Assembly: GCF_024298765.1 (NCBI RefSeq)
Contig: NZ_CP101210.1
DNA length: 64,000 bases
Reading direction: 5' to 3' (one strand)
From: Escherichia coli
GTDB lineage: Bacteria; Pseudomonadota; Gammaproteobacteria; Enterobacterales; Enterobacteriaceae
Below, piece by piece: positions 13,874 through 49,947 of the stretch. The position numbers and the translations under genes were made by a program. Positions within the stretch are counted from its first letter, which is position 1, and the number at the start of each line of letters is the position of its first letter. The notes under the pieces are model-generated. The model ran no database searches. It had not been told where the DNA came from and saw only the letters and a list, made by a program, of their open reading frames with translations.

Positions 13874-14450
13874 CATGACTCCTTGCTCATCGCATGAAGA
13901 CTCCGAGAGTGAACCCCGTTAGAAAGGGTCACACGCATGCCCCAATACAAAATTATTTGCTCGCCTCTATCGTTGCCATTTCATCAAAAGAGGAAAAGAC
14001 AATGATAAAAAAGTTACAAATGTGTTAATGAATAAACCAAATTGATCCCGTAATTATATTACGCCGCAAAATCCTTACAATAAACAGGTTTTTATTGAGC
14101 AAATTTGCATTTTTCGACAGTGATCAATTTATAGCGAAATTGTCACGATCTCACCAATTTGATCTACAACAATTTATCGTGTTTTGCAGATTTTTTTCAA
14201 GAATTAAAAATTGATTTATATCAAAATCAACCATATATGTTAATTATGTGTGAATCATGAGCCACTGGTAACTTTATTGTTAATTTATTGTAACAAAATA
14301 GCACAGTAAAATTACCCACATGGAAATATATAGATAAAAAACCAGTATTTTATTTAACAGAGCCGCTTTATCGACTTTTTATAATACTAATTAGTTAGAG
14401 TAGCTACTTTATTGCCATTTTACATAACATATTTTTATCAACGTTAATTG
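13874..14450 (-). promoter_or_regulatory. cydA upstream regulatory region (complex promoter, expected FNR/ArcA/H-NS control)
   Basis: Long AT-rich non-coding leader upstream of cydA; individual sites not resolved by eye. Confidence 0.45.
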
Positions 14451-15201
14451 ATTGTTGTCTTTATGAGCAACGTACTGTAAATCCGTCACTTATTGTTTCA
14501 TTGGTAATAATCACAAGAAGAAATAGATACCTTAGGTATAGTCAGATGGAACAAGGATTTTCAAAATAAAATATATATGGTATTAATATTTCCCGATCTG
14601 TATTCAATGATTAGCTCAAAGATTGAAAATCAAGAGAAATTGTTATAGCAGTGATACGAAACAACAAAACGGAATGATTGCCAGCCGTTAGAAAACACCG
14701 GACACTCTCGTGTAAAAAGCTACCCTGTCTATGGATATAGCGATATCAACTCATCAAGCGTGGACTGAATGATATTCAGCTCCATATGGGCGGCAACCTG
14801 GAGGATAAACATGATTTCGCCGTTGGAATCAAGGTTGTTCTGCAATATCTACCAGACTGCTTCAATTTATCTGTTTTGGCAGTGCCATAATCTTAATTTA
14901 ACTATTTGAAGATGATGATATTGTAAGATGCCAGAAATTTAGTAATCTGGAGAACCATGTTTACGATCACTAAATATTAAAGTAATAGTCGATAATTCAG
15001 TAACACATCGGGTAATATAATGTATTGATACATAATCATATTAAAAATTCGTGATTAAATAACATAAGAATATGTTTTATTATCATTAAAAAACCTTCTA
15101 TTTCCATCATCCTTAAGATAATAGAACAGTGAATGATGGATAACTTCACCAGAAAAACAAGCAAGAATATAAAATTTAAAAATATGATTCCACTTTCATT
15201 G

Positions 15202-16317
15202 TTATAAAATGGCATCGTGAAGAGCGAGTTGATAATACTGCAATGCATCAGCGTCCTGTCCAGCAGTTTCATAAATTTTGGCAATGTTATAATAGGAGTT
15301 AGCGCGCATTGTCGCCGCATTTGCTCCACTGGCTAACGAGATCGCTTTACGATTTGCCCAAATTGCTTCCGCGATGTTGCCATTTTTCTGATACGCCAGC
15401 CCCAGGTTACTAAATGCCTGTCCGTAATTGCCGTCTAATTCTGTTGCCTGTTGGAAGAGTTGAATGGCTTGCTCAAGTTGACCGGTTTTATAAACAGCTT
15501 CACCTTCGCGATTATATTTTCTTGCCAGTTGAGTATCTCCACTGTTTTGCATCGCAGGTGAAGCCGGAGTTGAAGAACCCGTCGCAGGCATTATCACAGT
15601 GGCTAAATCCCTGACGCCTAATGTGGTGTCGTTAAAATTGGCGCTGGTAACAGAGTTGATATCTTCAAACTCGCCGTTTGGATTGAGTTTAAACACGGTC
15701 CAGATGTTCCCTCGTTTTCCAGCAGGGACACTATAACTACGCACCAGGGAGCTCCCTACATAAACAAACACTTTTGCCTTACTGGCAGAGAGATAATTAC
15801 TGTTGGGCAACCCTTTGTTGCTATAGTCCTGCACGGCATAGATGTAACTTTCGCCAAAATGCTTTTTGCTGATAGTGACAGTTTCTGATCCATAGCTATC
15901 CGTATCATCAACATCCAGATTAGCATCAGTCCCCTCTTTACTATCAAAATAGATATGTCCGCCAGGGAAGATCAAATGTGAATCAAGATCAAAAGGCTTT
16001 TCGCCCCAGCTCAAAACTACACGCATGCCATCCAGACTAGTCATTGCCGGACTAATCGCATAAGTCATGCCAGCACACGAACATTTGACCACCAGATTAG
16101 AATAGCCCTCTTTTTTGACGATCAATAAAGCATCTTGATCATCAGCAAATGTAGAACCCAGATTAACGCTGCCCGATGCATTTGTGGTTCCAGAAACAGA
16201 TTGTGCGCCATTGCGTTGCAGCGTCACCGATACTCCCTCAATGCGTTTATCTTTCACTGTCGCACTTAAAATATCGATATTTACATCGGCCGCATAAACG
16301 TCCGAATTTACACCCAT
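15202..16317 (-). CDS. Hypothetical protein with C-terminal TPR repeats, probably secreted; occupies the position where K-12 has mngR-mngA-mngB
   Basis: 371-aa ORF; C-terminal TPR-like helices; in-frame upstream codons encode a Sec-signal-like segment (KKKIVLPVALALMGVNSDVYA/AD) with no ATG/GTG/TTG start, so the true start is uncertain. Confidence 0.6.
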   Translation of the reverse strand: MGVNSDVYAADVNIDILSATVKDKRIEGVSVTLQRNGAQSVSGTTNASGSVNLGSTFADDQDALLIVKKEGYSNLVVKCSCAGMTYAISPAMTSLDGMRVVLSWGEKPFDLDSHLIFPGGHIYFDSKEGTDANLDVDDTDSYGSETVTISKKHFGESYIYAVQDYSNKGLPNSNYLSASKAKVFVYVGSSLVRSYSVPAGKRGNIWTVFKLNPNGEFEDINSVTSANFNDTTLGVRDLATVIMPATGSSTPASPAMQNSGDTQLARKYNREGEAVYKTGQLEQAIQLFQQATELDGNYGQAFSNLGLAYQKNGNIAEAIWANRKAISLASGANAATMRANSYYNIAKIYETAGQDADALQYYQLALHDAIL

Positions 16318-16454
16318 CAGGGCCAGAGCAACCGGCAGAACAATTTTCTTCTTGTATAAATGCTTTTACAGAACGGAGAGGGGATATTTTGCCGGGCATT
16401 ATTGCGCAGAAGATGGGAGAAAAGCAGTGGGCAAACTTTTCAGATTAGTGCCCG

Positions 16455-16481
16455 AATAAAAAAGGCCATCATAAGATGGCC
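16455..16481 (-). terminator. Rho-independent terminator downstream of sucD
   Basis: Hairpin ggccatc-ataa-gatggcc followed on the transcribed strand by a U-run. Confidence 0.6.
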
Positions 16482-16556
16482 AACCATGTCGAAACCGACA
16501 GCCCTTCGCCCCTCCTGTAGAGGGAAGCGGCGAGGGCTATTTCTTATTACAGATAT

Positions 16557-25925: not shown

Positions 25926-26308
25926 ACGAGGACTCCTGCGAGAAGTGAAAGCACGACAGTAATAACAAAGGAGATTTTGGCGGAGCGTTTACCCGCTTCG
26001 AATGTTTCTTCCAGATAGCCAAAATCCATCATCATGTGGCGAATACCTACGACGACGTGATACGCCAGAGCGGTAAGGATGCCCCACATGATAAATTTGA
26101 CGAAGAAGCTGCCCATAATCGCGGAAGCTTGCTCGAAACCTTCAGGGGAAGAGAGGCTGGTACCCAGAAGCCACAGCAGGATGCCCACTGCAACAAAGGT
26201 GATCACACCGGAAACGCGATGGAGAATGGACGCTATCGCCGTGATGGGGAACCGGATGGTCTGTAGGTCCAGATTAACAGGTCTTTGTTTTTTCACATTT
26301 CTTATCAT
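25919..26308 (-). CDS. sdhC: Succinate dehydrogenase cytochrome b556 subunit
   Basis: 129 aa from [15 protein letters not shown]; track ORF is 5 codons longer. Confidence 0.95.
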
Positions 26309-27016
26309 GAATAACGCCCACATGCTGTTCTTATTATTCCCTGGGGACTACGGGCACAGAGGTTAACTTTCTGTTACCTGGAGACGTCGGGATTTCCTTC
26401 CTCCGGTCTGCTTGCGGGTCAGACAGCGTCCTTTCTATAACTGCGCGTCATGCAAAACACTGCTTCCAGATGCGAAAACGACACGTTACAACGCTGGGTG
26501 GCTCGGGATTGCAGGGTGTTCCGGAGACCTGGCGGCAGTATAGGCCGTTCACAAAATCATTACAATTAACCTACATATAGTTTGTCGGGTTTTATCCTGA
26601 ACAGTGATCTGCGTCACGATAACAACATTTATTTAATTTTTAATCATCTAATTTGACAATCATTCAACAAAGTTGTTACAAACATTACCAGGAAAAGCAT
26701 ATAATGCGTAAAAGTTATGAAGTCGGTATTTCACCTAAGATTAACTTATGTAACAGTGTGGAAGTATTGACCAATTCATTCGGGACAGTTATTAGTGGTA
26801 GACAAGTTTAATAATTCGGATTGCTAAGTACTTGATTCGCCATTTATTCGTCATCAATGGATCCTTTACCTGCAAGCGCCCAGAGCTCTGTACCCAGGTT
26901 TTCCCCTCTTTCACAGAGCGGCGAGCCAAATAACAAACGGGTAAAGCCAGGTTGATGTGCGAAGGCAAATTTAAGTTCCGGCAGTCTTACGCAATAAGGC
27001 GCTAAGGAGACCTTAA
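26309..27016. promoter_or_regulatory. Divergent sdhC / gltA promoter-regulatory region
   Basis: 708-bp non-coding region between divergently transcribed sdhC and gltA; sites not individually resolved. Confidence 0.6.
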
Positions 27017-28300
27017 ATGGCTGATACAAAAGCAAAACTCACCCTCAACGGGGATACAGCTGTTGAACTGGATGTGCTGAAAGGCACGCTGGGTCAAGAT
27101 GTTATTGATATCCGTACTCTCGGTTCAAAAGGTGTATTCACCTTTGACCCAGGCTTCACTTCAACCGCATCCTGCGAATCTAAAATTACTTTTATTGATG
27201 GTGATGAAGGTATTTTGCTGCACCGCGGTTTCCCGATCGATCAGCTGGCGACCGATTCTAACTACCTGGAAGTTTGTTACATCCTGCTGAATGGTGAAAA
27301 ACCGACTCAGGAACAGTATGACGAATTTAAAACTACGGTGACCCGTCATACCATGATCCACGAGCAGATTACCCGTCTGTTCCATGCTTTCCGTCGCGAC
27401 TCGCATCCAATGGCAGTCATGTGTGGTATTACCGGCGCGCTGGCGGCGTTCTACCACGACTCGCTGGATGTTAACAATCCTCGTCATCGTGAAATTGCCG
27501 CGTTCCGCCTGCTGTCAAAAATGCCGACCATGGCCGCGATGTGTTACAAGTATTCCATTGGTCAGCCATTTGTTTACCCGCGCAATGATCTCTCCTACGC
27601 TGGTAACTTCCTGAATATGATGTTCTCCACGCCGTGCGAACCGTATGAAGTTAATCCGATTCTGGAACGTGCTATGGACCGTATTCTGATCCTGCACGCT
27701 GACCATGAACAGAACGCCTCCACCTCCACCGTGCGTACCGCTGGCTCTTCGGGTGCGAACCCGTTTGCCTGTATCGCTGCAGGTATTGCTTCACTGTGGG
27801 GACCTGCGCACGGTGGTGCTAACGAAGCGGCGCTGAAAATGCTGGAAGAAATCAGCTCCGTTAAACACATTCCGGAATTTGTTCGTCGTGCGAAAGACAA
27901 AAATGATTCTTTCCGCCTGATGGGCTTCGGTCACCGCGTGTACAAAAATTACGACCCGCGCGCCACCGTAATGCGTGAAACCTGCCATGAAGTTCTGAAA
28001 GAGCTGGGTACCAAAGATGACCTGCTGGAAGTGGCTATGGAGCTGGAAAACATCGCGCTGAACGACCCGTACTTTATCGAGAAAAAACTGTACCCGAACG
28101 TCGATTTCTACTCTGGTATCATCCTGAAAGCGATGGGTATTCCGTCTTCCATGTTCACCGTCATTTTCGCAATGGCACGTACCGTTGGCTGGATCGCCCA
28201 CTGGAGCGAAATGCACAGTGACGGTATGAAGATTGCCCGTCCGCGTCAACTGTATACAGGATATGAAAAACGCGACTTTAAAAGCGATATCAAGCGTTAA
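27017..28300 (+). CDS. gltA: Citrate synthase (type II)
   Basis: 427-aa ORF matching the GltA family. Confidence 0.96.
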
Positions 28301-28330
28301 TGATTGATTGCTAAGCCGTTTACTTTCCGG

Positions 28331-28360
28331 ACCCGCCTTTAATAGAGCGGGTTCTTTTTT
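28331..28360 (+). terminator. Rho-independent terminator after gltA
   Basis: Stem acccgc/gcgggt followed by tctttttt. Confidence 0.6.
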
Positions 28361-28689
28361 ATATGGCTGAACATAATAAATTGTAAAAATTAAACCAGAT
28401 GCAAATACCCATTAATAAGGTGAAAAAATGTGACAAGTCACATACTGAGCAGAATGATAAGTTTATTTTTTTACTTTCCTGCCGGTAGCATTGTTAACCC
28501 AATGAAAATTATGCATATCCATCCCACCCCATCTTTCATCTCATTAAACAATAAATTTATGCACTCAATTATTCCATTCTTTATATAACAAGCTTTTTAA
28601 TATTGTTAAATAAAACCAAATACATTCAACTGTCAGTTAATATATTCTTGCCTCGCAACACTCTATCTCATTATTTAAAGGACTCAGCT

Positions 28690-29256
28690 ATGTTTAAAGG
28701 ACAAAAAACATTTGCCGCACTGGCCGTATCTCTGCTGTTCACTGCACCTGTTTATGCGGCTGATGAAGGATCCGGTGAAATTCACTTTAAAGGTGAAGTT
28801 ATTGAAGCACCGTGTGAAATACATCAGGATGATATTGATAAAGAAGTTGAACTCGGTCAGGTGACCACCAGCCACATTAATCAGTCGCATCACAGCGATG
28901 CCGTTGCTGTCGACCTGCGCTTAGTCAACTGCGATCTGGAAAACTCCAACAACGGTTCCGGCGGCAAGATTTCTAAAGTTGCAGTCACCTTTGACAGCTC
29001 AGCGAAAACCACCGGCGCAGATCCGATTCTCAACAACACCAGCACGGGTGAAGCGACCGGTGTCGGCGTGCGTTTAATGAATAAAGATCAAAGCAATATC
29101 GTTTTAGGCACCGCTACTCCAGATATCGACCTGGCACCAACCTCCAGCGAACAAACGTTAAATTTCTTTGCGTGGATGGAACAAATTGATCAGGCTACGC
29201 CCGTAACACCAGGCGCAGTTACGGCGAATGCGACCTACGTACTGGATTATAAATAA
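28690..29256 (+). CDS. ybgD: Fimbrial major subunit (type 1 pilin family), YbgD-like
   Basis: 188 aa from MFKGQKTFAALAVSLLFTAPVYA with signal peptide and RBS aagga; pilin C-terminal beta-strand; first gene of a chaperone-usher operon. Confidence 0.85.
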   Translation: MFKGQKTFAALAVSLLFTAPVYAADEGSGEIHFKGEVIEAPCEIHQDDIDKEVELGQVTTSHINQSHHSDAVAVDLRLVNCDLENSNNGSGGKISKVAVTFDSSAKTTGADPILNNTSTGEATGVGVRLMNKDQSNIVLGTATPDIDLAPTSSEQTLNFFAWMEQIDQATPVTPGAVTANATYVLDYK

Positions 29257-29306
29257 GTATCACTTTGGCGGCGTCATCGCCGCCTTTCTTCAAATATTTA
29301 TCAGGT

Positions 29307-31766
29307 ATGGACACCGTGAATATTTATCGACTCTCTTTTATATCCTGCCTGGTCATGGCGATACCTTCCGCATTGGCGGTCGAATTCAACCTGAATGTCC
29401 TCGATAAATCGATGCGAGATCGCATTGATATTTCATTATTAAAGGAAAAAGGGGGCATTGCTCCCGGTGAATATTTTGTTAGCGTTACAGTAAATAACAA
29501 CCAAATCAGTAACGGACAAAAAATTGACTGGAAAAAGAACGGTGACCAAACCATTCCGTGTATTAATGATTTACTGGTAGATAAATTTGGTTTAAAACCT
29601 GAAGTTCGTCAGTCGTTACCACGGTTAAACCAGTGCGTCGATTTTAGCTCCCGGCCTGAAATTCTCTTCATTTTTGATCAGGCTAGCCAGCAACTGAATA
29701 TCACTATTCCACAAGCCTGGCTGGCGTGGCACTCAGATAACTGGACTCCCCCCTCAACATGGAAAGAAGGTGTCGCCGGCGTCCTGATGGACTACAACCT
29801 GTTTGCAAGCAGCTACCGCCCACAGGATGGTAGCAACAGCACTAACCTGAACGCCTATGGAACAGCCGGAATTAACGCGGGAGCATGGCGTTTACGCAGT
29901 GATTACCAATTGAATCAGACCGATAGCGATGATAACCATGAACAGTCAGGCGAAATATCACGCACCTATCTTTTTCGTCCATTACCGCAATTAGGTTCAA
30001 AATTAACCCTTGGTGAAACGGATTTCAGTTCCAATATTTTCGACGGCTTTTCTTATACCGGCGCGGCACTGGCAAGTGACGATCGGATGTTACCGTGGGA
30101 GCTACGCGGCTACGCCCCACAAATCAGCGGCATTGCACAAACCAACGCCACCGTCACCGTGAGTCACTCAGGGCGAGTTATTTACCAGAAGAAAGTCCCA
30201 CCAGGTCCGTTTATCATTGATGACCTTAATCAGTCCGTCCAGGGTACGTTAGATGTCAAAGTGACGGAAGAAGATGGTCGGGCGAACAATTTCCAGGTTT
30301 CGGCAGCATCGACGCCTTTCCTTACGCGCCAGGGGCAGGTTCGCTATAAACTTGCTGCCGGTCAGCCGCGAACATCTATGTCTCATCAAACTGAAAATGA
30401 AACCTTTTTTAGCAATGAAGTTTCCTGGGGGATGCTGTCAAATACCTCACTGTACGGCGGCCTGCTGATTTCGGGTGACGACTACCATTCTGCCGCAATG
30501 GGTATCGGGCAAAATATGCTGTGGCTTGGTGCATTGTCGTTTGATGTCACGTGGGCCAGTAGTCAGTTTGATACTCAGCAGGACGAGCGGGGCTTAAGTT
30601 ACCGCTTTAATTACAGCAAACAAGTGGATGCCACCGACAGCACGATTTCGCTCGCCGCTTATCGTTTCTCCGATCGTCATTTTCACAGCTACGCCAACTA
30701 TCTGGATCACAAATACAACAACAGCGATGCGCAGGACGAAAAACAGACGATCAGCTTATCCGTGGGCCAACCGATTACCCCACTGAACCTCAATCTGTAC
30801 GCCAACCTGCTGCATCAAACCTGGTGGAATGCAGACGCCTCCACGACCGCCAACATCACGGCGGGTTTTAATGTTGATATTGGTAACTGGAGAGATATCT
30901 CGATCTCGACGTCATTCAATACAACCCATTACGAAGATAAAGATCGCGACAATCAGATTTACCTGTCGATTTCGCTCCCCTTCGGTAACGGGGGGCGGGT
31001 CGGTTATGACATGCAAAACAGTAGTCACAGCACCACACACCGCATGTCGTGGAATGATACGTTAGATGAACGTAATAGCTGGGGCATGTCTACCGGACTG
31101 CAATCCGACCGTCCGGATAATGGAGTCCAGGTGAGCGGTAACTATCAGCACCTGAGTTCAGCGGGTGAGTGGGATATTTCTGGTACCTATGCCGCCAATG
31201 ATTACAGTTCCGTCAGCAGCAGCTGGAGCGGTTCTTTCACGGCAACTCAATATGGTGCGGCGTTCCATCGTCGCAGCTCCACCAATGAACCACGTCTGAT
31301 GGTCAGTACCGATGGCGTGGCAGATATTCCGGTTCAGGGCAATCTCGACTACACCAACCATTTTGGCATTGCGGTGGTGCCGTTGATTTCCAGTTATCAG
31401 CCTTCCACCGTGGCGGTGAACATGAATGATTTACCCGACGGCGTAACAGTGGCAGAAAACGTTATCAAAGAAACGTGGATTGAAGGCGCGATAGGTTACA
31501 AATCGCTGGCTTCCCGTTCCGGTAAAGACGTTAACGTCATCATTCGCAACGCCAGCGGTCAGTTCCCTCCCCTCGGTGCGGATATCCGCCAGGATAACAG
31601 CGGCATTAGCGTGGGGATGGTTGGCGAGGAAGGACATGCCTGGTTAAGCGGAGTCGCTGAAAATCAAATGCTTACCGTGGTCTGGGGTGATAGTCAGCAT
31701 TGCTCGCTCCATCTTCCTGAACATATGGAAGACACCGCAAATCGACTGATTTTACCTTGTCATTAA
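29307..31766 (+). CDS. ybgQ: Fimbrial outer-membrane usher, YbgQ-like
   Basis: About 820 aa; usher family; start set at the ATG giving signal peptide MDTVNIYRLSFISCLVMAIPSALA (track ORF starts at an upstream TTG at 29265). Confidence 0.85.
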   Translation: MDTVNIYRLSFISCLVMAIPSALAVEFNLNVLDKSMRDRIDISLLKEKGGIAPGEYFVSVTVNNNQISNGQKIDWKKNGDQTIPCINDLLVDKFGLKPEVRQSLPRLNQCVDFSSRPEILFIFDQASQQLNITIPQAWLAWHSDNWTPPSTWKEGVAGVLMDYNLFASSYRPQDGSNSTNLNAYGTAGINAGAWRLRSDYQLNQTDSDDNHEQSGEISRTYLFRPLPQLGSKLTLGETDFSSNIFDGFSYTGAALASDDRMLPWELRGYAPQISGIAQTNATVTVSHSGRVIYQKKVPPGPFIIDDLNQSVQGTLDVKVTEEDGRANNFQVSAASTPFLTRQGQVRYKLAAGQPRTSMSHQTENETFFSNEVSWGMLSNTSLYGGLLISGDDYHSAAMGIGQNMLWLGALSFDVTWASSQFDTQQDERGLSYRFNYSKQVDATDSTISLAAYRFSDRHFHSYANYLDHKYNNSDAQDEKQTISLSVGQPITPLNLNLYANLLHQTWWNADASTTANITAGFNVDIGNWRDISISTSFNTTHYEDKDRDNQIYLSISLPFGNGGRVGYDMQNSSHSTTHRMSWNDTLDERNSWGMSTGLQSDRPDNGVQVSGNYQHLSSAGEWDISGTYAANDYSSVSSSWSGSFTATQYGAAFHRRSSTNEPRLMVSTDGVADIPVQGNLDYTNHFGIAVVPLISSYQPSTVAVNMNDLPDGVTVAENVIKETWIEGAIGYKSLASRSGKDVNVIIRNASGQFPPLGADIRQDNSGISVGMVGEEGHAWLSGVAENQMLTVVWGDSQHCSLHLPEHMEDTANRLILPCH

Positions 31767-31780
31767 TTAAGGAAATGAAA

Positions 31781-32512
31781 ATGACATTTATGAAAGGACT
31801 ACCCCTTTTGTTGTTGGTTGCCAGTCTGTGCAGCCACGCTGCACTACAACCCGATCGCACTCGTATTGTGTTTAACGCTAATGATAAAGCTACCAGTCTG
31901 CGCGTGGATAATCGTAGCGATAAACTCCCCTACCTCGCTTATTCCTGGCTCGAAAATGAAAAAGGGGAGAAAAGCGATGATCTTCTGGTTGCCCTGCCAC
32001 CGATACAACGTCTGGAACCGAAAGCAACAACGCAGGTACGGATAGTAAAGCAAGCCTCGACCACAAAATTACCGGGCGATCGCGAAACGCTATTTTTCTA
32101 CAATATGCGTGAAATTCCTCCCTCCCCAGAAAAAAACAGCGGCCATGCCGTTCTGCAAGTCGCCATTCAGAGTCGTATCAAGGTATTCTGGCGACCGGCT
32201 GCATTACGCAAGAAAGCAGGAGAAAAGGTCGAGCTACAGTTACAAGTCAGCCAGCAGGGCAACCAACTGACACTGAAAAATCCTACCGCGTATTATCTGA
32301 CCATTGCCTATCTGGGGAGAAATGAAAAAGGCGTTCTTCCCGGCTTCAAAACCGTGATGGTTGCGCCTTTTAGTACAGTAATTACAAACACCGGAAGTTA
32401 TAGCGGCAGTCAGTTTTATCTCGGTTATATGGATGATTACGGCGCGTTACGCATGACGACGCTCAACTGCAGCGGACAATGCCGTTTACAAGCAGTGGAG
32501 GCGAAGAAATGA
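31781..32512 (+). CDS. ybgP: Fimbrial periplasmic chaperone (PapD family), YbgP-like
   Basis: 243 aa from [20 protein letters not shown] with RBS aggaa; PapD-like. Confidence 0.85.
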
Positions 32513-33570
32513 GTGCTGGCAAGGGAGTGTTGCTCGTCATCTGTCTGGTATTTCTGCCATTGAAGTCTGCGCTAGCGCTGAACTGCTATTTTGGTACTTC
32601 CGGCGGAACGGTAGAAAAATCGGAAGCGATTCAACCCTTTGCTGTGCCAGGTAATGCCAAACCCGGCGATAAGATCTGGGAATCTGACGATATTAAAATT
32701 CCCGTCTATTGTGACAACAATACCAACGGCAACTTTGAAAGCGAACATGTCTACGCATGGGTAAACCCCTACCCCGGGGTACAGGATCGTTATTATCAAC
32801 TCGGCGTGACATACAATGGTGTCGATTACGATGCCAGTCTGGGGAAAAGCCGCATCGACACCAACCAGTGTATCGACAGTAAGAACATTAACATTTATAC
32901 CCCTGAGCAGATTATCGCGATGGGCTGGCAGAACAAAATATGCTCGGGTGACCCCGCTAATATTCACATGTCGCGAACCTTTCTCGCTCGTATGCGGTTA
33001 TACGTTAAGATTCGCGAAATGCCGCCGCATGATTATCAAAGTACGCTTAGCGACTATATCGTCGTGCAATTTGACGGTGCCGGTAGCGTTAACGAAGACC
33101 CTACTGCCCAAAACCTGAAATATCATATTACTGGTCTGGAAAACATTCGCGTGCTGGATTGCAGCGTCAATTTTTCCATTTCACCGGAAACACAGGTGAT
33201 TGATTTTGGTAAATTTAATTTGCTGGATATTCGCCGCCACACAATGTCGAAAACATTCAGTATTAAGACGACAAAATCACAAAATGACCAGTGCACCGAC
33301 GGATTTAAGGTCAGCTCTTCGTTTTATACCGAAGAAACATTGATTGAAGAGGATAAAGCACTGCTGATTGGTAATGGACTGAAGCTACGTTTGCTGGATG
33401 AAAATTCTTCACCCTATACTTTCAACAAATACAGCGAATATGCTGATTTCACCAGCGATATGCTGATCTACGAAAAAACCTATACGGCTGAACTTTCGTC
33501 CATTCCCGGCACCCCCATCGAAGCGGGTCCCTTCGATACAGTGGTGCTTTTTAAGATTAACTATAACTAA
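32509..33570 (+). CDS. ybgO: Fimbrial adhesin-like tip subunit, YbgO-like
   Basis: 353 aa from [23 protein letters not shown] with RBS ggagg; two-domain adhesin-like size; overlaps the chaperone stop. Confidence 0.8.
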
Positions 33571-33722
33571 TTTATCATGATGCCCTTTGCAGTCAGTAAA
33601 GGGCCTCTCTTTCAGAAAATTGCTGATTTTCCCCTTTTCCTTGATTGCTGTTATTTTTTCCTGGCCCGGCTTTCTTTATGCTGTATCGATACACCAAAGA
33701 GAAAATAATGAGGGAGCGAAGG

Positions 33723-34769
33723 ATGCCAGTTTTGCAGTGGGGAATGTTATGTGTGCTCTCACTTCTACTTTCTATTGGCTTCCTCGGATTACATCTCCCG
33801 GCGGCGCTATTACTTGGGCCGATGCTCGCCGGGATCATCTTCAGTATGCGCGGGGTTACCCTGCAACTCCCCCGCTCCGCTTTTCTCGCCGCGCAGGCCA
33901 TTCTTGGCTGCATGATTGCGCAAAACCTGACCGGTTCGATCCTGACCACGCTAGCGGTGAACTGGCCGATTGTGTTAGCTATTTTACTGGTGACGTTACT
34001 TTCCAGCGCCATCGTGGGTTGGTTATTGGTGCGCTATAGCTCGCTGCCAGGAAATACCGGGGCCTGGGGTTCTTCTCCTGGCGGCGCGGCGGCAATGGTC
34101 GCAATGGCGCAAGATTACGGCGCAGATATTCGCCTGGTGGCGTTTATGCAATATCTGCGAGTGCTGTTCGTCGCAGGAGCCGCTGTTCTGGTCACCCGCA
34201 TGATGCTGGGCGATAACGCTGAAGCGGTTAACCAGCAGATCGTCTGGTTCCCGCCAGTGAGCATTAATCTCCTGCTTACGATTTTGCTCGCGGTCGTTGC
34301 CGGTACGGCGGGATGCTTGCTACGTCTTCCTTCCGGCACGATGCTCATCCCGATGCTGGCGGGCGCAGTGCTCCAGTCTGGTCAGCTCATCACGATTGAA
34401 CTCCCGGAATGGCTGCTGGCGATGGCATATATGGCAATTGGCTGGCGGATTGGTCTTGGTTTCGATAAGCAAATATTACTGCGGGCATTGCGCCCACTGC
34501 CACAAATCCTGCTGTCGATTTTTGCTCTGCTGGCTATTTGTGCGGGTATGGCGTGGGGGCTGACCCGGTTTATGCATATTGATTTTATGACCGCCTACCT
34601 CGCCACCAGCCCCGGCGGGCTTGATACCGTGGCGGTCATCGCCGCAGGGAGCAATGCCGATATGGCGCTCATCATGGCGATGCAAACCCTGCGCCTGTTC
34701 AGTATTTTGCTGACGGGACCTGCCATTGCGCGGTTTATTTCAACCTATGCGCCGAAGCGTTCTGCCTAA
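33723..34769 (+). CDS. abrB: Inner-membrane protein AbrB (putative regulator/transporter, AbrB duplication family)
   Basis: 348 aa from [16 protein letters not shown]; polytopic membrane protein; conserved position next to nei. Confidence 0.85.
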
Positions 34770-35557
34770 TGCTGGCAGCCAGGGCACCAGTAAAACGGGC
34801 GAGATGACAGCGTGGTTTTCTCAATGATGCCGCCACAGCGTTCGCACAGTTCGCCATCACGATGAAAAACCTTAAAGCGAAACAGCGCCCCATGATGCTT
34901 ATTCTCATCCACCTGCCCCCGCGTAGCGTAGGAAAATCGAGGAATATCCAGTAACGCGTGTGCGAGTGCATCCAGTTGCGCCGCATTGAGATCTTTCGCT
35001 TTATGATTTCCAGTCAACCCAACCTGCCAGAGGATCTCCACCCGCAAATAATTGCCAAGCCCAGCCAGAAACGCCTGATCGAGCAGTAATCCAGCAAACT
35101 GACGGTTACGAAAGCGCGGCGACAATAACCGTTCCTTTACCACCTCCGGCGTCAGATTCGGATCCAGCACATCGGGGCCGACTCGTTGTAAAAACGGATG
35201 CGTGATCAGTTGTTCCGGCGTCAACATCTCAATATCCGAGGCGCTATAAAGCAGAATAGTTTTGTCAACCGTTTGCAGTTTTACCCGCAATACTCGCATA
35301 GTCTGCGGCTCTTCGCCGGTATCAACCACGCGCCAGACGCCGTAAAGCTGATTATGGCTGTAGAGCGTTAAGTCGTTGGAAAAATGAGTTAACAACGCCT
35401 TACCACGCGTTTCCACATGGGTAACGTGTTGACCGATAAGTTGTGATTGATAAGGTTTTAACTGCGGGAAGGCAAACCAGACATCAGTTAGTGGTTTGCC
35501 TTTGATCGCCGCCTCCAGGTTATCCGCTGCACGGCGGATCTCCGGGCCTTCAGGCAT
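34766..35557 (-). CDS. nei: Endonuclease VIII (DNA glycosylase/AP lyase)
   Basis: 263-aa ORF starting MPEGPEIRR (Fpg/Nei catalytic N-terminal Pro) with C-terminal zinc finger CxxC...CxxC. Confidence 0.95.
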
Positions 35558-42459: not shown

Positions 42460-43294
42460 CAGGGCAAGATTACGAAAGCCCGCTCCCCGTAAGGACTGAC
42501 GCCAGGTAGTTTCTGTCCATAGCTGCCCTTTCTATTCAAACGTGAAATCAATAAGTTCATCAGGGACATCACAAACAATATGAAGACGGGTTTCTTCTCT
42601 GCCGTGACTCTTTTCACTAATTGAGTAACTGTCGTGCTCTGGATTATTTAATTCTTTCAGCGGAAATTTTTCCTCAAAGGCTTTATTAAGCCGCCACCTG
42701 ATTTCCTTTTACAGCGAATAAATAATCACCTCCCTGTTTTTGTATCTTCTCTGCAATATCTTTCTGGCAACTCATCGCATCAGTTGTGATGATTTTTCCT
42801 TTAATATCCAGCATGTTAAGAAGTTCAGGGATAGCTGTAATTTCATTGGATTTCTCATCCGTCCTGATCTGTCCGATGACCAGACTGTGCATTGTTGAGA
42901 ACGCACTAATGACATGAATCGCTCCCCTGCGGCGACTCTTGTCATAAGAATGCCGGAGCGTTTTTCCATCAATTGCAATAACGTCTTTATCATCTGAAGA
43001 ATGGCAGTCACGCATCCAGTTAATAAAGCACTCGTGAAATTTTGAAGGACTGATACAGGATACAACTCTGGCGATGGTATCGTGAACAGGAATACCATTT
43101 TAAAAATCACCATATTGTTTTAAAAAATCGAGATGTGTTTCCCCAAAATCCTCTATATCTTCCCAACCATCTGCACCAGAAATAACGGCACAAATAGTCA
43201 ACAGTAGAATATCCGACAATTTATGTTCCACTTTTCCAGGATTGTCTGTAATCGGGAATAACAGAAATATGTTCCATCAATTTTTTAAGTACCA
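42460..43294 (-). pseudogene. H-repeat (ISAs1-family) transposase pseudogene, copy 1: internal deletion plus nonsense/frameshift
   Basis: Aligns to the intact copy at 45108-46244 but lacks about 330 bp near the 3' end, has the 1-bp insertion shared with copy 3, and a stop (ttttaaaa in place of ttttcaaa) near 43100. Confidence 0.85.
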
Positions 43295-43424
43295 TTTTGT
43301 TCTCCTTAATTATGTAAGGAGTATTTGATCATGTATAAGCAATAAAAAACAGCTTTAGGTAATGAGGAATATCTCAATTTTTAAACATAAAATGCGAATT
43401 GTCTAGTACAAAAAAGCAGCGTTA

Positions 43425-43531
43425 CGTGATCTTTCCCTGAGAGGTACAGGAACTGCGGGAGGAACTTTATCAGGTTAAACAGGGGTTAAGGGGATGCGGA
43501 ACGGGATGTTTAGTGTGCTGAACGAAAGCTA
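43425..43531 (+). pseudogene. SymE-like toxin gene remnant (internal deletion)
   Basis: Retains the leader and GTG start context and the 3' end of the intact copy at 46375-46725; central part deleted, early stop. Confidence 0.7.
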
Positions 43532-43587
43532 AATAATAAAAAAGCCGGGAAGATCTTATCTTTCCCGGCCATCTTGCCATACATTAA

Positions 43588-44022
43588 TTATTTATGAATA
43601 TAATATAACTGAACATCATATTCATTATCACTTAAAACTATTAGTCGATCGGGAAATGTAAATGCTAATGAAAGATCATATGTTTCATTTATCGAAAACA
43701 AACTCAATATGAAATTTGAAAAATTTTCGACATGAAGAGATATGCAAACATCTCCATTATAGAATATATTGCAAAGAATATCTTTTTTCACATTCAGTGT
43801 ACTTTCAACATCTCTCGCTAGATCATTAATATTTAAAGGTAAATTGAAAACTCTCCTTTCAATAATATTATCGGTTTTATTTATTGCCATTAGCATTTCT
43901 CGATGCCACATGAAGTCATTCTTACGTAAGAATGATACATCAAAGGAAGTGACACCATTTAATTTAGAAGCATAATCTTTTGCTCTAATTAAATTTAATT
44001 TATCTTCAAGGCTAATTTTCAT
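43588..44022 (-). CDS. Putative Rhs-toxin immunity protein (orphan cassette 1)
   Basis: 144-aa low-GC ORF starting 4 nt before the stop of the orphan toxin reading frame; typical rhs-CT/rhsI arrangement. Confidence 0.6.
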   Translation of the reverse strand: MKISLEDKLNLIRAKDYASKLNGVTSFDVSFLRKNDFMWHREMLMAINKTDNIIERRVFNLPLNINDLARDVESTLNVKKDILCNIFYNGDVCISLHVENFSNFILSLFSINETYDLSLAFTFPDRLIVLSDNEYDVQLYYIHK

Positions 44023-44470
44023 AATATATATGATGATCCTTAGTTACAGGGTCATTGATCTTCTGATATCTATCACTTTTGAAATCGTATGTTCTAGGAT
44101 CAGCGCCCGGTTTAGGTTGTCCTGCATGTGCGTGAGGGCCAGGTGCCCTAGGATCTGCCGTGTGCTCGACTACAACTTTCTTACGTCCGTAGGCATCTGT
44201 ATATTCATAATATCGCCCATGAGACCCTAAATCTTCCGAATATTTATAATTTGTTTGTCCCCTTCTTCTAGGATCATTTCCAACGGTCCATTGCCTATTA
44301 GGTTGCTGTGAACGAGGTATGCCCGCAAGATCTTTTGCTTTATTTAGTGCCTGACGACGGTTTCTTAATTCACCACATTTAAGACCAAGCGGATCTATCC
44401 AGCTTACTGGATTAGGCGCGTAAGCATATAAGTTTAGCCCCCCCGCCAGCCCTATCGGGTCGGGTTACGT
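44011..44470 (-). pseudogene. Orphan rhs C-terminal toxin remnant (no start codon; in-frame stop before the DPxGL motif)
   Basis: Reverse-strand frame reads ...[46 protein letters not shown] followed by a 125-aa unique domain ending at the immunity gene; not in the ORF track because it lacks a start. Confidence 0.7.
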
Positions 44471-44634
44471 AAATGTTCCACAGTCCGAGTCGTAGTACCT
44501 CAGAAGGTTGCAGTGCAATCCCGCCTTGCGACATCAAGGCATAGTTTCAGAAAAAGTAAGGAGCAATCACCATACCCCAATTCACTGGGTGCTAAATAAT
44601 ATCTGGTAACATCCCTTACTTCAATTCTATTTCA

Positions 44635-45030
44635 TTACAACTTCTTTACTTTCCATATTCTTTGCGCAGCTAAAAAAGATACTCCTTTGAACCAAGACGC
44701 ACATTCAATAACTTGTTCCCATGAATATATTTTATGTGAGCTAAATTTTATCGATTCATCTTGGTTCATTATCTCAATAAAATAATATCCTTTATTATAA
44801 TCTCTTTTTTCTATTCTATCTTCAGCTCTTGCCGAACGTATAGAAATAACACAATCATCTAATAAACAAAATCTTTTCTTTATAATCGCATCATCTTGGT
44901 TCCATGGATTTGTACTTGCCATTTGTTCTGATTGTTTCAGCTCATTCACTACTGTATACCAAATAGCTTCGGTATCACTTGCCTTTGCATTCTCTCTATC
45001 AGACTCGGATCTAAATATAATTTTGTCCAT
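44635..45030 (-). CDS. Hypothetical protein, possibly an orphan immunity gene
   Basis: 131-aa low-GC ORF between H-repeat copy 2 and the orphan toxin remnant; no recognisable motif. Confidence 0.4.
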   Translation of the reverse strand: MDKIIFRSESDRENAKASDTEAIWYTVVNELKQSEQMASTNPWNQDDAIIKKRFCLLDDCVISIRSARAEDRIEKRDYNKGYYFIEIMNQDESIKFSSHKIYSWEQVIECASWFKGVSFLAAQRIWKVKKL

Positions 45031-45107
45031 TTTAATAATCCAAATGTAAATTACTTAAAATACCCTCTGCCTCATTCCAGGCATTGACATGGGAACCCAG
45101 GGAAAGA

Positions 45108-46244
45108 TTACGAAAGCCCGCTCCCAGCAAGGACTGACGCCAGATAGTTTCTGTCCATGGCTGCTTTTCGCATCTTACGTCTTAACCCTGCCTTGAATAC
45201 CTTATCATTCGTCAAAATATTAATAGCGATGTGCCGTATCCCTGAAAATAATTCTGCTGCATTTCCTCTTCTTATTTTGCAGTCGTCTTCATTCATTACC
45301 ACGTCCAGACGCCAGTGCAGCTTATTCTCCACGTGCCAGTGGTTTCGGATTGCTGTGGCGAACTTCTCTGCGGTTAAATCAGCAGAACTGATATAATATC
45401 TGACCGTCATTTCTGGCTCTTTCTTTTGTTCTGCTATTATTGACCGAAAGGAGACTGCCACGCATAATTTCTTCAGACCTTTCCATTCAAACGTGAAATC
45501 AATAAGTTCATCAGGGACATCGCAAACAATATGAAGACGGATTTCTTCTCTGCCGTGACTTTTTTCACTAATTGCGTAACTGTCATGCTCTGGATTATTT
45601 AATTCTTTCAGTGGGAATTTTTCCTCAAAGGCTTTATTAAGCCGCCCCTGATTTCCTTTTACAGCGAATAAATAATCACCGCCCTGTTTTTGTATCTTCT
45701 CTGCGATATCTTTCTGGCACCCCATCGCATCAGTTGTGATAATTTTTCCTTTAATATCCAACATGTTAAGAAGTTCAGGGATAGCTGTGATCTCATTGGA
45801 TTTCTCATCCGTCCTGATCTGTCCGATGACCAGACTGTGCATTGTTGAGAACGCACTAATGACATGAATCGCTCCCCTGCGGCGACTCTTGTCATAAGAA
45901 TGCCGGAGCGTTTTTCCATCAATTGCAATAACGTCTTTATCATCTGAAGAATGGCAGTCACGCATCCAGTTAATAAAGCACTCGTGAAATTTTGCAGGAC
46001 TGATACAGGATACAACTCTGGCAATGGTATCGTGAACAGGAATACCATTTTCAAAATCACCATATTGCTTCAAAAAATCGAGATGTGTTTCCCCAAAATC
46101 CTCTATATCTTCCCAGCCTTCTGCACAAGAAATAACGGCACAAATAGTCAACAGTAGAATATCCGACAATTTATGTTCCACTTTCCAGGCTTGTCTGTAA
46201 TCGGGGATAATAGAAATATGTTCCATCAATTTTTTAAGTTCCAT
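45108..46244 (-). CDS. H-repeat-associated protein (ISAs1-family transposase), intact copy 2
   Basis: 378-aa ORF of the YhhI/YdcC/YbfD H-rpt type; element left end about 45094 (aagattacgaaagcccgc). Confidence 0.9.
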
Positions 46245-46374
46245 TTTGTTCTCCTTAATTATGTAAGGAGTATTTGACCATGTATACGCAATAAAAAACA
46301 GCTTCAGGTAATGAGGAATATCTCAATTTTTAAACATAAAATGCGAATTATTTAGTACAAAAAAGCAGCGTTAC

Positions 46375-46725
46375 GTGATCTTTCCCTGGTTAATCATGGC
46401 TGAACACGATATTACGCCAGAAATCACCATTTCCAAAACACAGCGCCGCTATAAAGTCGGCTATGTCAGAGCCCGCCACATAAACAGCAAAACCTACATG
46501 ACCACGTACTACTCACGACACCCCAGCCTGAACCTCAAGGGCGACTGGCTGAAAGAGGCCGGATTTGATACCGGGCGGGGTGTCACGGTGAAGATTTCGG
46601 AGGGGTGCCTGACCATCATCGCTGACAGTGACGAGGTGCAGGAACTGCGGGAGGAACTTTATCAGGTTAAACAGGTGGTTAAGGGGATGCGGAGCGGGAT
46701 GTTTAGTGTGCTGAACGATAATTAA
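46375..46725 (+). CDS. SymE-like toxin (AbrB/SpoVT-fold type I toxin family), intact copy
   Basis: 116-aa ORF from GTG (or 109 aa from ATG at 46396); contains the SymE-family core LKGDWLKEAGFDTGRGVTVKISEGCLTI. Confidence 0.75.
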   Translation: MIFPWLIMAEHDITPEITISKTQRRYKVGYVRARHINSKTYMTTYYSRHPSLNLKGDWLKEAGFDTGRGVTVKISEGCLTIIADSDEVQELREELYQVKQVVKGMRSGMFSVLNDN

Positions 46726-46734
46726 ATAATAAAA

Positions 46735-46765
46735 AGCCGGGAAGATTTAATTTTCTTTCCGGCTT
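46735..46765 (-). terminator. Hairpin terminator between the SymE-like gene and the immunity gene
   Basis: gccgggaaga...tctttccggc hairpin flanked by an A-run on the plus strand (U-run for the minus-strand transcript); same motif at 43540-43572 and 51983-52018. Confidence 0.55.
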
Positions 46766-46776
46766 TGTCTAATTAA

Positions 46777-47172
46777 TTATTCAGGAAATTTTCTATTTTT
46801 ATATGATGACCATAAGTGAGTGATCGACCAAGAGTTTTCCTTTCCGAGTACAAAACTTTTGGAGATTATCTCAATATCATCAGATATACGCGAAGATATT
46901 TCAGAATTATTAATCACCCTGAATGAGTATTTAAATGCCTTTTCTCGCAAGGAATCAATAAACTCAATATCATCATCCTGAAAACTTTCCTTATCTAATG
47001 AATTAAACTCACTCATCCAGCAATCATCAAACTCCGGTTCATCTCTTGAGTCTAATGCACTATCAACATTTAATGATTTAAGAAAATCAAAAAATGACGG
47101 GGTGGATAAACAGTTATCAATTTCAATTAGCTTATTATTAATCATCACATTAACCCTTGTCCTTTGAGCCAA
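46777..47172 (-). CDS. Putative Rhs-toxin immunity protein (orphan cassette 2)
   Basis: 131-aa acidic low-GC ORF immediately 3' of and overlapping the GHH-type orphan toxin. Confidence 0.6.
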   Translation of the reverse strand: MAQRTRVNVMINNKLIEIDNCLSTPSFFDFLKSLNVDSALDSRDEPEFDDCWMSEFNSLDKESFQDDDIEFIDSLREKAFKYSFRVINNSEISSRISDDIEIISKSFVLGKENSWSITHLWSSYKNRKFPE

Positions 47173-47790
47173 ACCTCTATTAAATCAACAGCCTTGGATG
47201 GTGTCACATTAGTACCTAGCGTATAAGTTCCATTTGGAGATTTAACATCAACTCTGATGTCATCTAATTTTGAATACGCTTTTCTGTAAGCATCAAATAA
47301 CTCTTTATCCGAACCAAGGAAATCACCTTGTCTTGGACCTATCACATCTCGTTCCGCATGATGTAAACGCCAGTGATTATGTTCTGGATTTTCTCCTCTA
47401 GGGAATAATGTTGGGCGAGTTTTATCAGATCGGGAAACTTCAAACGGACGTCCTTTAGATTTACGAACCGCAGGAACATGATGTCCAGATTCACTCACGC
47501 CCATACACTTCTTCGTTAATCCAAGGGGATCGATCCAGCTTAACGGATTCGGTGCATAAGCATACAGGTTTAACCCGCCTCTTAGCCCTATCGGGTCCGT
47601 TACCATGAACCGCCCGACATCCGGATCATAGTACCTGTGCAGATTGTAATGCAGCCCCGTTTCCCTGTCGAGGTACTGTCCCTGGTAGCGCAGGTTCTGC
47701 TCCACCCCGCCGTGGTCCTTCTCCTGTATCGTGTTACCCCAGACCTGATACCCCGTCTCCCACACGATTTTCCCGTCACTGTCCGTCATC
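47145..47790 (-). CDS. Orphan rhs C-terminal fragment with GHH-signature HNH/EndoVII-like nuclease toxin domain
   Basis: Core end ([38 protein letters not shown]) followed by a unique domain containing SGHHVPAV and EHNHWRLHH; 5' end truncated by the H-repeat copy 3 insertion; the track Met is fortuitous. Confidence 0.65.
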
Positions 47791-47802
47791 TCCAGGGCAA
47801 GA

Positions 47803-48940
47803 TTACGAAAGCCCGCACCCCGCAAGGACTGACGCCAGATAGTTTCTGTCCATGGCTGCTTTTCGCATCTTACGTCTTAACCCTGCCTTGAATACCTTAT
47901 CATTCGTCAAAATATTAATAGCGATGTGCCGTATCCCTGAAAATAATTCTGCTGCATTTCCTCTTCTTATTTTGCAGTCGTCTTCATTCATTACCACGTC
48001 CAGACGCCAGTGCAGCTTATTCTCCACGTGCCAGTGATTTCGGATCGCTGTGGCGAACTTTTCTGCGGTTAAATCAGCAGAACTGATATAATATCTGACC
48101 GTCATTTCTGGCTCTTTCTTTTGTTCTGCTATTATGGACCGAAAGGAGACTGCCACGCATAATTTCTTCAGTCCTTTCCATTCAAACGTGAAATCAATAA
48201 GTTCATCAGGGACATCACAAACAATATGAAGACGGGTTTCTTCTCTGCCGTGACTCTTTTCACTAATTGAGTAACTGTCGTGCTCTGGATTATTTAATTC
48301 TTTCAGCGGAAATTTTTCCTCAAAGGCTTTATTAAGCCGCCACCTGATTTCCTTTTACAGCGAATAAATAATCACCTCCCTGTTTTTGTATCTTCTCTGC
48401 AATATCTTTCTGGCAACTCATCGCATCAGTTGTGATGATTTTTCCTTTAATATCCAGCATGTTAAGAAGTTCAGGGATAGCTGTAATTTCATTGGATTTC
48501 TCATCCGTCCTGATCTGTCCGATGACCAGACTGTGCATTGTTGAGAACGCACTAATGACATGAATCGCTCCCCTGCGGCGACTCTTGTCATAAGAATGCC
48601 GGAGCGTTTTTCCATCAATTGCAATAACGTCTTTATCATCTGAAGAATGGCAGTCACGCATCCAGTTAATAAAGCACTCGTGAAATTTTGCAGGACTGAT
48701 ACAGGATACAACTCTGGCAATGGTATCGTGAACAGGAATACCATTTTCAAAATCACCATATTGCTTCAAAAAATCGAGATGTGTTTCCCCAAAATCCTCT
48801 ATATCTTCCCAGCCTTCTGCACCAGAAATAACGGCACAAATAGTCAACAGTAGAATATCCGACAATTTATGTTCCACTTTCCAGGCTTGTCTGTAATCGG
48901 GGACAATAGAAATATGTTCCATCAATTTTTTAAGTTCCAT
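47803..48940 (-). pseudogene. H-repeat (ISAs1-family) transposase pseudogene, copy 3 (frameshifted)
   Basis: Split into two ORFs (47803-48156 and 48332-48940) by a 1-bp insertion (aagccgccacctg versus aagccgcccctg in the intact copy). Confidence 0.85.
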
Positions 48941-49080
48941 TTTGTTCTCCTTAATTATGTAAGGAGTATTTGATCATGTATAAGCAATAAAAAACAGCTT
49001 TAGGTAATGAGGAATATCTCAAATCTTAAACATAAAATGCCAATTATTTAGTACAAAAAAGTAGCGTTACGTGATCTTTC

Positions 49081-49570
49081 CCTAAAACGCAGACCCAGTT
49101 GTGCATAGTACACATGGTACGCAACAGCCTGCGGTTCGTGACGTGGAAAGACTATAAAGCGGTAACCCGTGACCTGAAACAGGTTTACCGCGCGGCCACG
49201 GAAGAAGGCGTGTTGCAGGCGCTGGATGCGTTCGGGAAGGAATGGGATGCACGGTACCCGCAGATAAGTCGCAGCTGGCGGGCAAACTGACCGAATGTTG
49301 CCACCTTCTTCGTGTACCCGGAGGCGATCCGAAAGGTTATCTACACCACTAACGCAATCGAATCGCTGAATAGCGTCATCAGACATGCGATAAAGAAAAG
49401 GAAAGTGTTCCCGACAGATGAATCGGTGAAAAAAGTGGTGTGGCTGGCTATCCAGTCAGCCTCACAGAAATGGACGATGCCACTTCAGGACTAGCGGATA
49501 GCCATGAGTCGCTTTATTATCGAGTTCGGTGACCGCCTTGACGGTCACTTCTGAGAAAGGCATTTACACA
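49081..49570 (+). mobile_element. IS256-family (mutator-type) transposase gene remnant, 5'-truncated and frameshifted
   Basis: ORFs 49099-49290 and 49312-49494 encode the C-terminal part of an IS256-type transposase (...YPQISRSWRAN / IRKVIYTTNAIESLNSVIRHAIKKRKVFPTDESV...); begins abruptly at the shared leader sequence. Confidence 0.75.
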
Positions 49571-49619
49571 GAATGATGGACAGGCTCAACGGGAAGGCTA
49601 CATGCCTTCCCATTTTATA

Positions 49620-49946
49620 TTAATCACCCGGCTTCTCCCAACATTTTATCTTTTCTATTTCTCTCTCAATATCATCCATATCATCATCTCCAAGATCGGT
49701 ATTAAAATTTTCAGTAATAACCCTTCTTATTTCAGCCAACCGATGTGTAATATTTTTATCATCAATAAATTTAGTGGTTTCTTTAAAGTAAGAATTCAAC
49801 AATTTATCATCAATAACGTTCTGCTCTATACCATTGAAATAATACCTTGCAATATTCTTAAGTGATATCAATATGTACTCTACCTCACTTAGAATATAAA
49901 GGGCATCCTTCCCGGGTATATTAATTACATCATTGTTTTTATTCAT
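49620..49946 (-). CDS. Putative Rhs-toxin immunity protein (orphan cassette 3)
   Basis: 108-aa acidic low-GC ORF 1 nt downstream of the 601-aa orphan rhs. Confidence 0.6.
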   Translation of the reverse strand: MNKNNDVINIPGKDALYILSEVEYILISLKNIARYYFNGIEQNVIDDKLLNSYFKETTKFIDDKNITHRLAEIRRVITENFNTDLGDDDMDDIEREIEKIKCWEKPGD

Positions 49947-49947
49947 A

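Follow-up and report, generated by a model that had tools for sequence, protein, structure and literature searches.

The 64,000-nucleotide stretch of Escherichia coli DNA analysed here (the window) carries, at positions 28690–33570 of its plus strand, a four-gene fimbrial operon. With a probability of about 93%, this locus is an intact E. coli ybgDQPO operon, which encodes a minimal π-class (P-pilus-like) chaperone–usher system and occupies its ancestral position, with gltA and abrB on either side. The listing and translation of open reading frames (ORFs) give four uninterrupted frames on one strand: the ybgD-position gene for the major pilin subunit (28690–29256, 188 amino acids), ybgQ for the outer-membrane usher (29307–31766, 819 amino acids from ATG 29307), ybgP for a periplasmic PapD-like chaperone (31781–32512, 243 amino acids) and ybgO for a putative two-domain tip adhesin (32509–33570, 353 amino acids). 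The pilin gene begins 389 bp after the end of gltA (27017–28300), abrB (33723–34769) lies downstream of the operon, and nei stands on the strand opposite to the operon. Strain 104, an E. coli chicken isolate from China, matches the window with 100% identity from 28300 to 33700 and differs from window positions 1–50000 at 11 of 50,000 positions. The RefSeq annotation of strain 104 by the Prokaryotic Genome Annotation Pipeline (PGAP) places genes at the same four coordinates under the names 'fimbrial protein', ybgQ, ybgP and ybgO, the first gene not being named ybgD. The gltA–abrB flanks are common to the window, strain 104, K-12 DH1 and O157:H7, and synteny with K-12 ybgDQPO is exact. Protein lengths agree with those of the K-12 and O157 orthologues (188/818–819/242–243/353), so no frameshift is present. 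At the protein level the usher is 93% identical to K-12 YbgQ, the chaperone 90% to YbgP and the adhesin 97.5% to YbgO.

Together, these observations bear out an earlier note on the same DNA, which had described a four-gene fimbrial operon of the ybgD-ybgQ-ybgP-ybgO type adjoining gltA, with every gene intact. Its statement that the gene junctions are overlapping or tightly coupled stands in part. The chaperone and adhesin genes share a 4-nt ATGA overlap and the usher and chaperone genes are separated by 14 nt, but the pilin–usher junction is a 50-nt gap occupied by a strong hairpin followed by a T-run. Antisense ORFs of 62–131 amino acids inside the operon are regarded as mechanical, and PGAP places no gene there; an Rfam scan of 26000–35000 found no known RNA family. 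The operon itself is already known: it is named in RefSeq, appears in published surveys, has been deleted in engineered strains and has its adhesin domain in the PDB.

The first gene product matches the Pfam Fimbrial family (PF00419) with 105.5 bits over profile positions 1–151 of 151. By inspection, its signal peptide is cleaved after VYA; the donor-strand motif GEIHFKGEVIEAPC aligns to FimA GTVHFKGEVVNAAC, and the C-terminus reads ...YVLDYK. FimA and PapA are its best solved relatives, with the N-terminal motif aligned. In having a Fimbrial domain and a Cys pair, as well as a donor strand at its N-terminus and Tyr as its penultimate residue, the protein conforms to a polymerising pilin. It is the positional orthologue of K-12 YbgD and has the same length, yet it belongs to a distinct allele class, with 79% amino acid and 74% nucleotide identity and a synonymous divergence (dS) of 1.56. 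A Shine–Dalgarno sequence, AAGGA, lies at 28677–28681. An exact 10-nt direct repeat, TTTAAAGGAC, flanks the ybgD start codon at 28674–28683 and 28693–28702; the first copy supplies the Shine–Dalgarno sequence and the second encodes ybgD residues 2–4, an arrangement that may be a chance match.

The usher matches the Pfam families PapC_N (114 bits), Usher (623 bits, profile positions 2–548 of 549) and PapC_C (50 bits), all above gathering cut-offs, and so shows the make-up of a classical usher: N-terminal domain, plugged β-barrel and C-terminal domain. It aligns with solved PapC end to end at 527 bits, residues 25–818 corresponding to PapC 1–805, and with FimD at 276 bits. The earlier note had left its start codon ambiguous between TTG 29265 and ATG 29307. 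The ambiguity is settled here in favour of ATG 29307. A start at TTG 29265, as in the longest ORF, would give a protein of 833 amino acids, and the frame is indeed open from that TTG in both the window strain and K-12. However, the TTG is located at the stem base of a −15.4 kcal/mol hairpin, and the O157 allele carries an in-frame TGA between this hairpin and the ATG. Moreover, the 14 added residues, MAASSPPFFKYLSG, are unlike a signal peptide, whereas MDTVNIYRLSFISCLVMAIPSALA resembles one; the first residue of mature PapC falls on residue 25 of the product that begins at ATG 29307, and PGAP also chooses the ATG. Because of the hairpin at the TTG, the O157 stop codon and the alignment of the mature PapC residue, the usher start is placed at ATG 29307, and the longer product is very improbable. 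From this start, a predicted signal peptide ends in ...SALA and the mature protein begins VEFNLN. GTG 29316, three codons after the ATG, is a candidate alternative start that would change the signal peptide only.

The chaperone matches PapD_N (118 bits) and PapD_C (53 bits), both above cut-off, and its closest solved relative is PapD at 170 bits, compared with 104 bits for FimC. Residues R28 and K134 align to the cleft residues Arg8 and Lys112 of PapD, and the C-terminal Cys pair of PapD is retained. A Shine–Dalgarno sequence, AAGGA, precedes ATG 31781 by 7 nt. ATG 31775 was rejected as the chaperone start, since its spacing to the Shine–Dalgarno sequence would be 1 nt rather than 7 nt.

YbgO divides into a signal peptide (32509–32577), a receptor-binding domain of residues 24–217 (32578–33159) and a pilin domain of residues 218–353 (33160–33567), all on the plus strand. 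The mature protein begins at L24 directly with the receptor-binding domain and lacks an N-terminal donor strand, which under donor-strand exchange places YbgO at the fibre tip. An AlphaFold2 model shows two domains (predicted local distance difference test score, pLDDT, 88.4; predicted template modelling score, pTM, 0.79), and its best Foldseek matches are the two-domain tip adhesins FimH (top), LpfD, CupB6, PapG, CsuE and CfaE, in agreement with the adhesin-like tip subunit proposed in the earlier note. Residues 24–217 match PDB entries 9RX0 and 9RWW (uninformatively titled 'Fimbrial protein') with an E value of 1e-130 and six substitutions, so crystal structures of this domain already exist; more distant PDB matches are 9RWU/9RWV and 9RWE. 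All five entries are absent from a fold library ending 2026-04-08 and hence appear to be more recent. A search of the literature available to us for 9RX0, 9RWW, 9RWU, 9RWV and 9RWE found no paper, and no sequence similarity between the YbgO receptor-binding domain and PapG was detectable. ATG 32479, which would give a protein of 363 amino acids, was rejected as the adhesin start: the start at 32509 has GGAGG 7 nt upstream, its M1 is near-invariant in an alignment of 41 homologues from Escherichia, Enterobacter, Citrobacter, Salmonella, Kluyvera and others, and PGAP agrees.

Assignment to the π clade of the Nuccio and Baumler usher phylogeny follows from similarity ranking rather than from a tree. 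Specifically, PapC ranks above FimD for the usher and PapD above FimC for the chaperone, StdB, SteC, StfD and StdC are the top family matches, and the gene order is pilin, usher, chaperone, adhesin, with the usher before the chaperone. Published listings place ybgDQPO in the π type (PMC3032704, Table 5) and among the 'core-associated' E. coli fimbrial types (PMC3559732). Ybg fimbriae are defined by where the locus lies and by the identity of the usher (Wurpel et al. 2013). The K-12 operon (Korea et al. 2010; Wurpel et al. 2013) has the same locus, gene order, lengths and PGAP names ybgQ, ybgP and ybgO, but differs in the allele class of its major subunit and in its upstream region, which is only 65% identical. 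P pili (papA-K) share with Ybg the placement of usher before chaperone, PapC and PapD as closest solved relatives, the cleft R8/K112 and C-terminal disulfide, and a two-domain tip adhesin, whereas their PapH terminator, PapK/E/F adaptors, PapI/PapB regulators and upstream GATC have no counterpart in Ybg. Type 1 fimbriae (fimAICDFGH) follow the same assembly principle, FimA being among the nearest solved relatives of YbgD and FimH the top fold match of YbgO, but they belong to the γ1 clade, place the chaperone before the usher and possess FimI/F/G and a fimS switch with FimB/FimE, none of which is present at the ybg locus.

Two further groups of systems resemble Ybg. The Salmonella Std, Stf and Ste fimbriae are related π-type systems and not orthologues: StdB is the best NCBIfam usher match at 633 bits against a cut-off of 1289, PRK15284, an unnamed usher subfamily, follows at 629 bits, and the best NCBIfam chaperone matches, SteC, StfD and StdC, reach 171–188 bits, all of these scores being far below the equivalog cut-offs. 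The ygiL-yqiGHI operon (Yqi fimbriae, also called ExPEC adhesin I) is likewise a four-gene π operon composed of a major subunit, usher, chaperone and two-domain adhesin; it differs in standing at another chromosomal locus as a distant paralogue, and a related receptor-binding domain has been solved as 9RWU/9RWV. A 349-residue E. coli paralogue of YbgO (P0107 in our set), 37% identical over its full length, is presumed from its length, species and similarity to be of the YqiI type. Enterobacter hormaechei carries the same four-gene order between zupT/ygiD-like genes and ribB (L010, 3165–8062), with a YbgO homologue 63% identical; in E. coli, the zupT–ribB interval is occupied by ygiL-yqiGHI. 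Ybg and Yqi are therefore sister π systems, each of four genes.

Several observations weigh against the identification as an intact π-class operon. Pfam families were found for all four proteins, three of them above the curated cut-off, while the C-terminal Fimbrial match of YbgO, at 24 bits, falls just under the cut-off of 25.6. This match is backed by the confident AlphaFold model, the fold matches and the solved structures, which together support reading the 353-residue protein as a two-domain tip adhesin. All four proteins stay below the cut-off of every NCBIfam model; the Ybg proteins of K-12 itself miss the cut-offs likewise, so NCBIfam lacks a Ybg-specific model. A scan of the region upstream of ybgD gave 6 promoter matches against 8.8 expected in shuffles, and no promoter was assigned. 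Finally, the operon is deleted or disrupted by insertion sequences (IS) in a sizeable minority of E. coli genomes and is therefore dispensable. PRK09733 was also considered as a YbgD model that the window protein fails, and it was set aside because K-12 and O157 YbgD miss its cut-off equally (133 and 132 against 189 bits); it is not a Ybg model.

A count over 5,426 complete E. coli genomes gives the extent of this loss: 4,158 contain 80% or more of the operon, and 1,268 lack that much. Two different clean deletions in other strains join 28429 to 33178 (L004, 4001–4674) and 28372 to 33520 (L005, 4001–4270), and both leave a ybgO 3′ remnant. Since two independent deletions left such remnants, the operon is ancestral at gltA–abrB and has been lost more than once. 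The same remnants, with a GC content near the genome average and the lack of mobility genes, led us to reject a foreign genomic island. These losses, with IS1 and IS21 insertions in other strains and the mention by Wurpel et al. of many strains with a non-intact locus, are also what one would expect of a silent relic in decay, intact here by chance and contributing nothing to fitness. We consider such a relic improbable, however, because the ratio of non-synonymous to synonymous divergence (dN/dS) is 0.04–0.12 in all four genes even though synonymous sites are saturated, because reading frames and lengths are kept in all three allele classes, and because the operon has been reported as transcribed in Shiga toxin-producing E. 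coli isolates, at higher levels in the group associated with haemolytic uraemic syndrome. Low dN/dS across such deep allelic divergence supports the retained function that the earlier note had suggested from the intact state of the operon.

The allelic divergence is concentrated in the operon itself. Flanking genes are 97–100% identical to K-12 and O157, while identities to K-12 and O157 within the locus fall to 74 and 70% in ybgD, 91 and 77% in ybgQ, 87 and 76% in ybgP, 92 and 80% in ybgO, and 65 and 43% in the upstream region, which is the most divergent segment between strains and contains indels relative to K-12. Between classes dS reaches 1.5–2.0, a saturated value, compared with 0.05–0.13 in gltA. 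The strongest constraint falls on the YbgO receptor-binding domain, for which a comparison across strains had been suggested: its dN/dS of 0.014–0.034 is the lowest found, with 0.014 and 99% amino acid identity against K-12. A ybgD match occurs in 4,185 genomes: in 2,800 it is at least 95% identical to the window gene, in only 50 it falls between 80 and 95%, and in 1,335 it is of the K-12 type (about 74%) or the O157 type (about 71%). The window ybgD accordingly represents the majority class in E. coli, and the K-12 class is estimated at about 920 of 4,185 carriers, a figure obtained by subtracting the 412 operons in the 60–80% band from the 1,335 ybgD matches in that band.

Compared with five other loci (L002, L003, L006, L007 and L008), the ybg locus (28301–33722) is a hypervariable mosaic between near-invariant flanks, with ybgD in three discrete classes, the promoter region in several versions and recombination breakpoints at the ybgD borders. 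For example, strain ZH142 joins a promoter region and ybgD of the window type to ybgQPO of the K-12 type, the breakpoint lying at the pilin–usher hairpin, and strain OkiPb01696 combines a different promoter region with a window-type ybgD. The allele-class pattern points to selection as what maintains the genes and, as far as sequence comparison goes, is compatible either with an old balanced polymorphism or with past introgression.

Introgression would mean that one of the classes, whether that of the window or another, had entered from a different Enterobacteriaceae lineage, the conserved flanks serving for homologous recombination. The excess of dS between classes over that of flanking gltA, the sharp fall of identity at 28300 with recovery near 33700, and the mosaic structure with its breakpoints at the ybgD borders all fit such an event, as does the position of O157-type YbgO, which at 88% identity is about as far from the main E. 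coli type as are the orthologues of other Escherichia species (84–86%). No donor was found, however, O157-type YbgO being only 80–82% identical to the other Escherichia YbgO sequences sampled; the GC content of the operon (0.45–0.49) is close to the genome value, no mobility genes occur at the locus, and the homologous Enterobacter operon stands at a different locus. Import is possible on this evidence, and we hold it to be somewhat doubtful. The dS of abrB between strains, 0.19–0.24 (about 89% identity in the bin at 33900), is also raised over the gltA values; this could be linked diversity beside a polymorphic operon or the result of recombination tracts reaching into abrB.

The alternative, a balanced polymorphism, is offered just as tentatively. 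Ybg might represent an ancient polymorphism of independently assorting modules, comprising at least three promoter versions, three ybgD classes, assembly and adhesin genes that have likewise diverged, and a near-invariant receptor-binding domain. If this is true, the Ybg fimbria would be expressed in natural hosts and seen by immunity or phages, with negative frequency-dependent selection acting on the shaft antigen, and it would bind one conserved receptor. A search of the literature available to us found no paper describing this allele-class and module pattern for ybg. The allele-class structure is of modest interest and fits what is well known of fimbrial major subunits, which readily diversify.

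The intergenic region between gltA and ybgD (28301–28689, plus strand) contains the gltA terminator hairpin at about 28328–28354 (folding free energy, ΔG, −15.6), an AT-rich presumed regulatory and promoter region, and the ybgD Shine–Dalgarno sequence. Over its 389 bp the GC content is 0.32, against 0.504 for the window, with A/T tracts, and H-NS silencing through this region is plausible. Two switching mechanisms known from other fimbriae were considered and rejected. Phase variation of the Pap type (PapI/PapB, Lrp, Dam) was dismissed in that no GATC occurs in 28301–28689 and no papI/papB-like regulator gene is present, no regulator ORF of any kind lying between gltA and abrB. An invertible promoter switch of the fimS type was dismissed in that the upstream region contains only weak inverted repeats (12–20 nt, 75–85% complementarity) and the locus has no recombinase gene.

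The pilin and usher genes are separated by the GC hairpin GGCGGCG-TCAT-CGCCGCC followed by TTTCTT (29267–29290, plus strand). A terminator scan delimits its stem-loop to 29267–29284 with seven GC pairs; it folds at −15.4 kcal/mol (z −5.2), and none of 200 shuffles was as stable. The K-12 and O157 alleles keep the stem but vary in the loop. On the model of other fimbrial operons, the hairpin may act as a partial terminator or as a messenger RNA (mRNA)-stabilising element that raises the pilin:usher ratio. The operon ends at a terminator-like hairpin after ybgO (33582–33612 on the plus strand, the hairpin itself at 33582–33604), formed by GCCCTTTGC-AGTCA-GTAAAGGGC and followed by CTCTCTTTC (ΔG −15.6, z −3.6).

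Established knowledge of the Pap and Fim systems suggests how the four products would work together. All four would be exported by Sec, after which YbgP would bind the subunits one by one in the periplasm through donor-strand complementation and anchor their C-termini with the Arg and Lys of its cleft. The YbgP–YbgO complex would be recruited first by YbgQ, and YbgO would be restricted to the distal tip, its receptor-binding domain standing in place of an N-terminal donor strand. YbgQ would then polymerise YbgD beneath YbgO through donor-strand exchange and extrude the fibre. Some transcripts probably end at, or are stabilised by, the hairpin that follows ybgD, so that pilin mRNA would exceed that of the usher, chaperone and adhesin, and the AT-rich upstream region would be the likely site of any H-NS silencing. 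Within the species, variation is greatest in the antigenic shaft subunit and the promoter region, with the receptor-binding domain tightly conserved. PMC6033998 cites Korea et al. 2010 as showing that Ybg fimbriae raise adherence to bladder cells, adhesion being reported for the K-12 allele only upon artificial expression.

For the major subunit and the promoter, K-12 is unrepresentative of the species; read mapping or genome-wide association studies against K-12 will therefore show a very high ybg 'variant density' whose true source is the allele classes. Because its receptor-binding domain is conserved while the shaft varies, YbgO is a sensible protein on which to base a search for the receptor.

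Elsewhere in the window, the interval between cydA and sucD (13874–16556) contains only a 1.1-kb gene for a tetratricopeptide-repeat protein (15202–16317, minus strand). K-12 carries mngR-mngA-mngB between these two genes, and the interval looks like another variable segment. In the divergent intergenic region between sdhC and gltA, PGAP annotates a 35-residue hypothetical protein (26704–26811, WP_001305582.1), conserved in all strains examined. Positions 42535–50000 form an Rhs-associated region with ISAs1-family transposase genes, some of them pseudogenes, and truncated RHS core fragments, together with an HNH/EndoVII-fold polymorphic toxin gene accompanied by small neighbouring ORFs and a SymE-family toxin gene.

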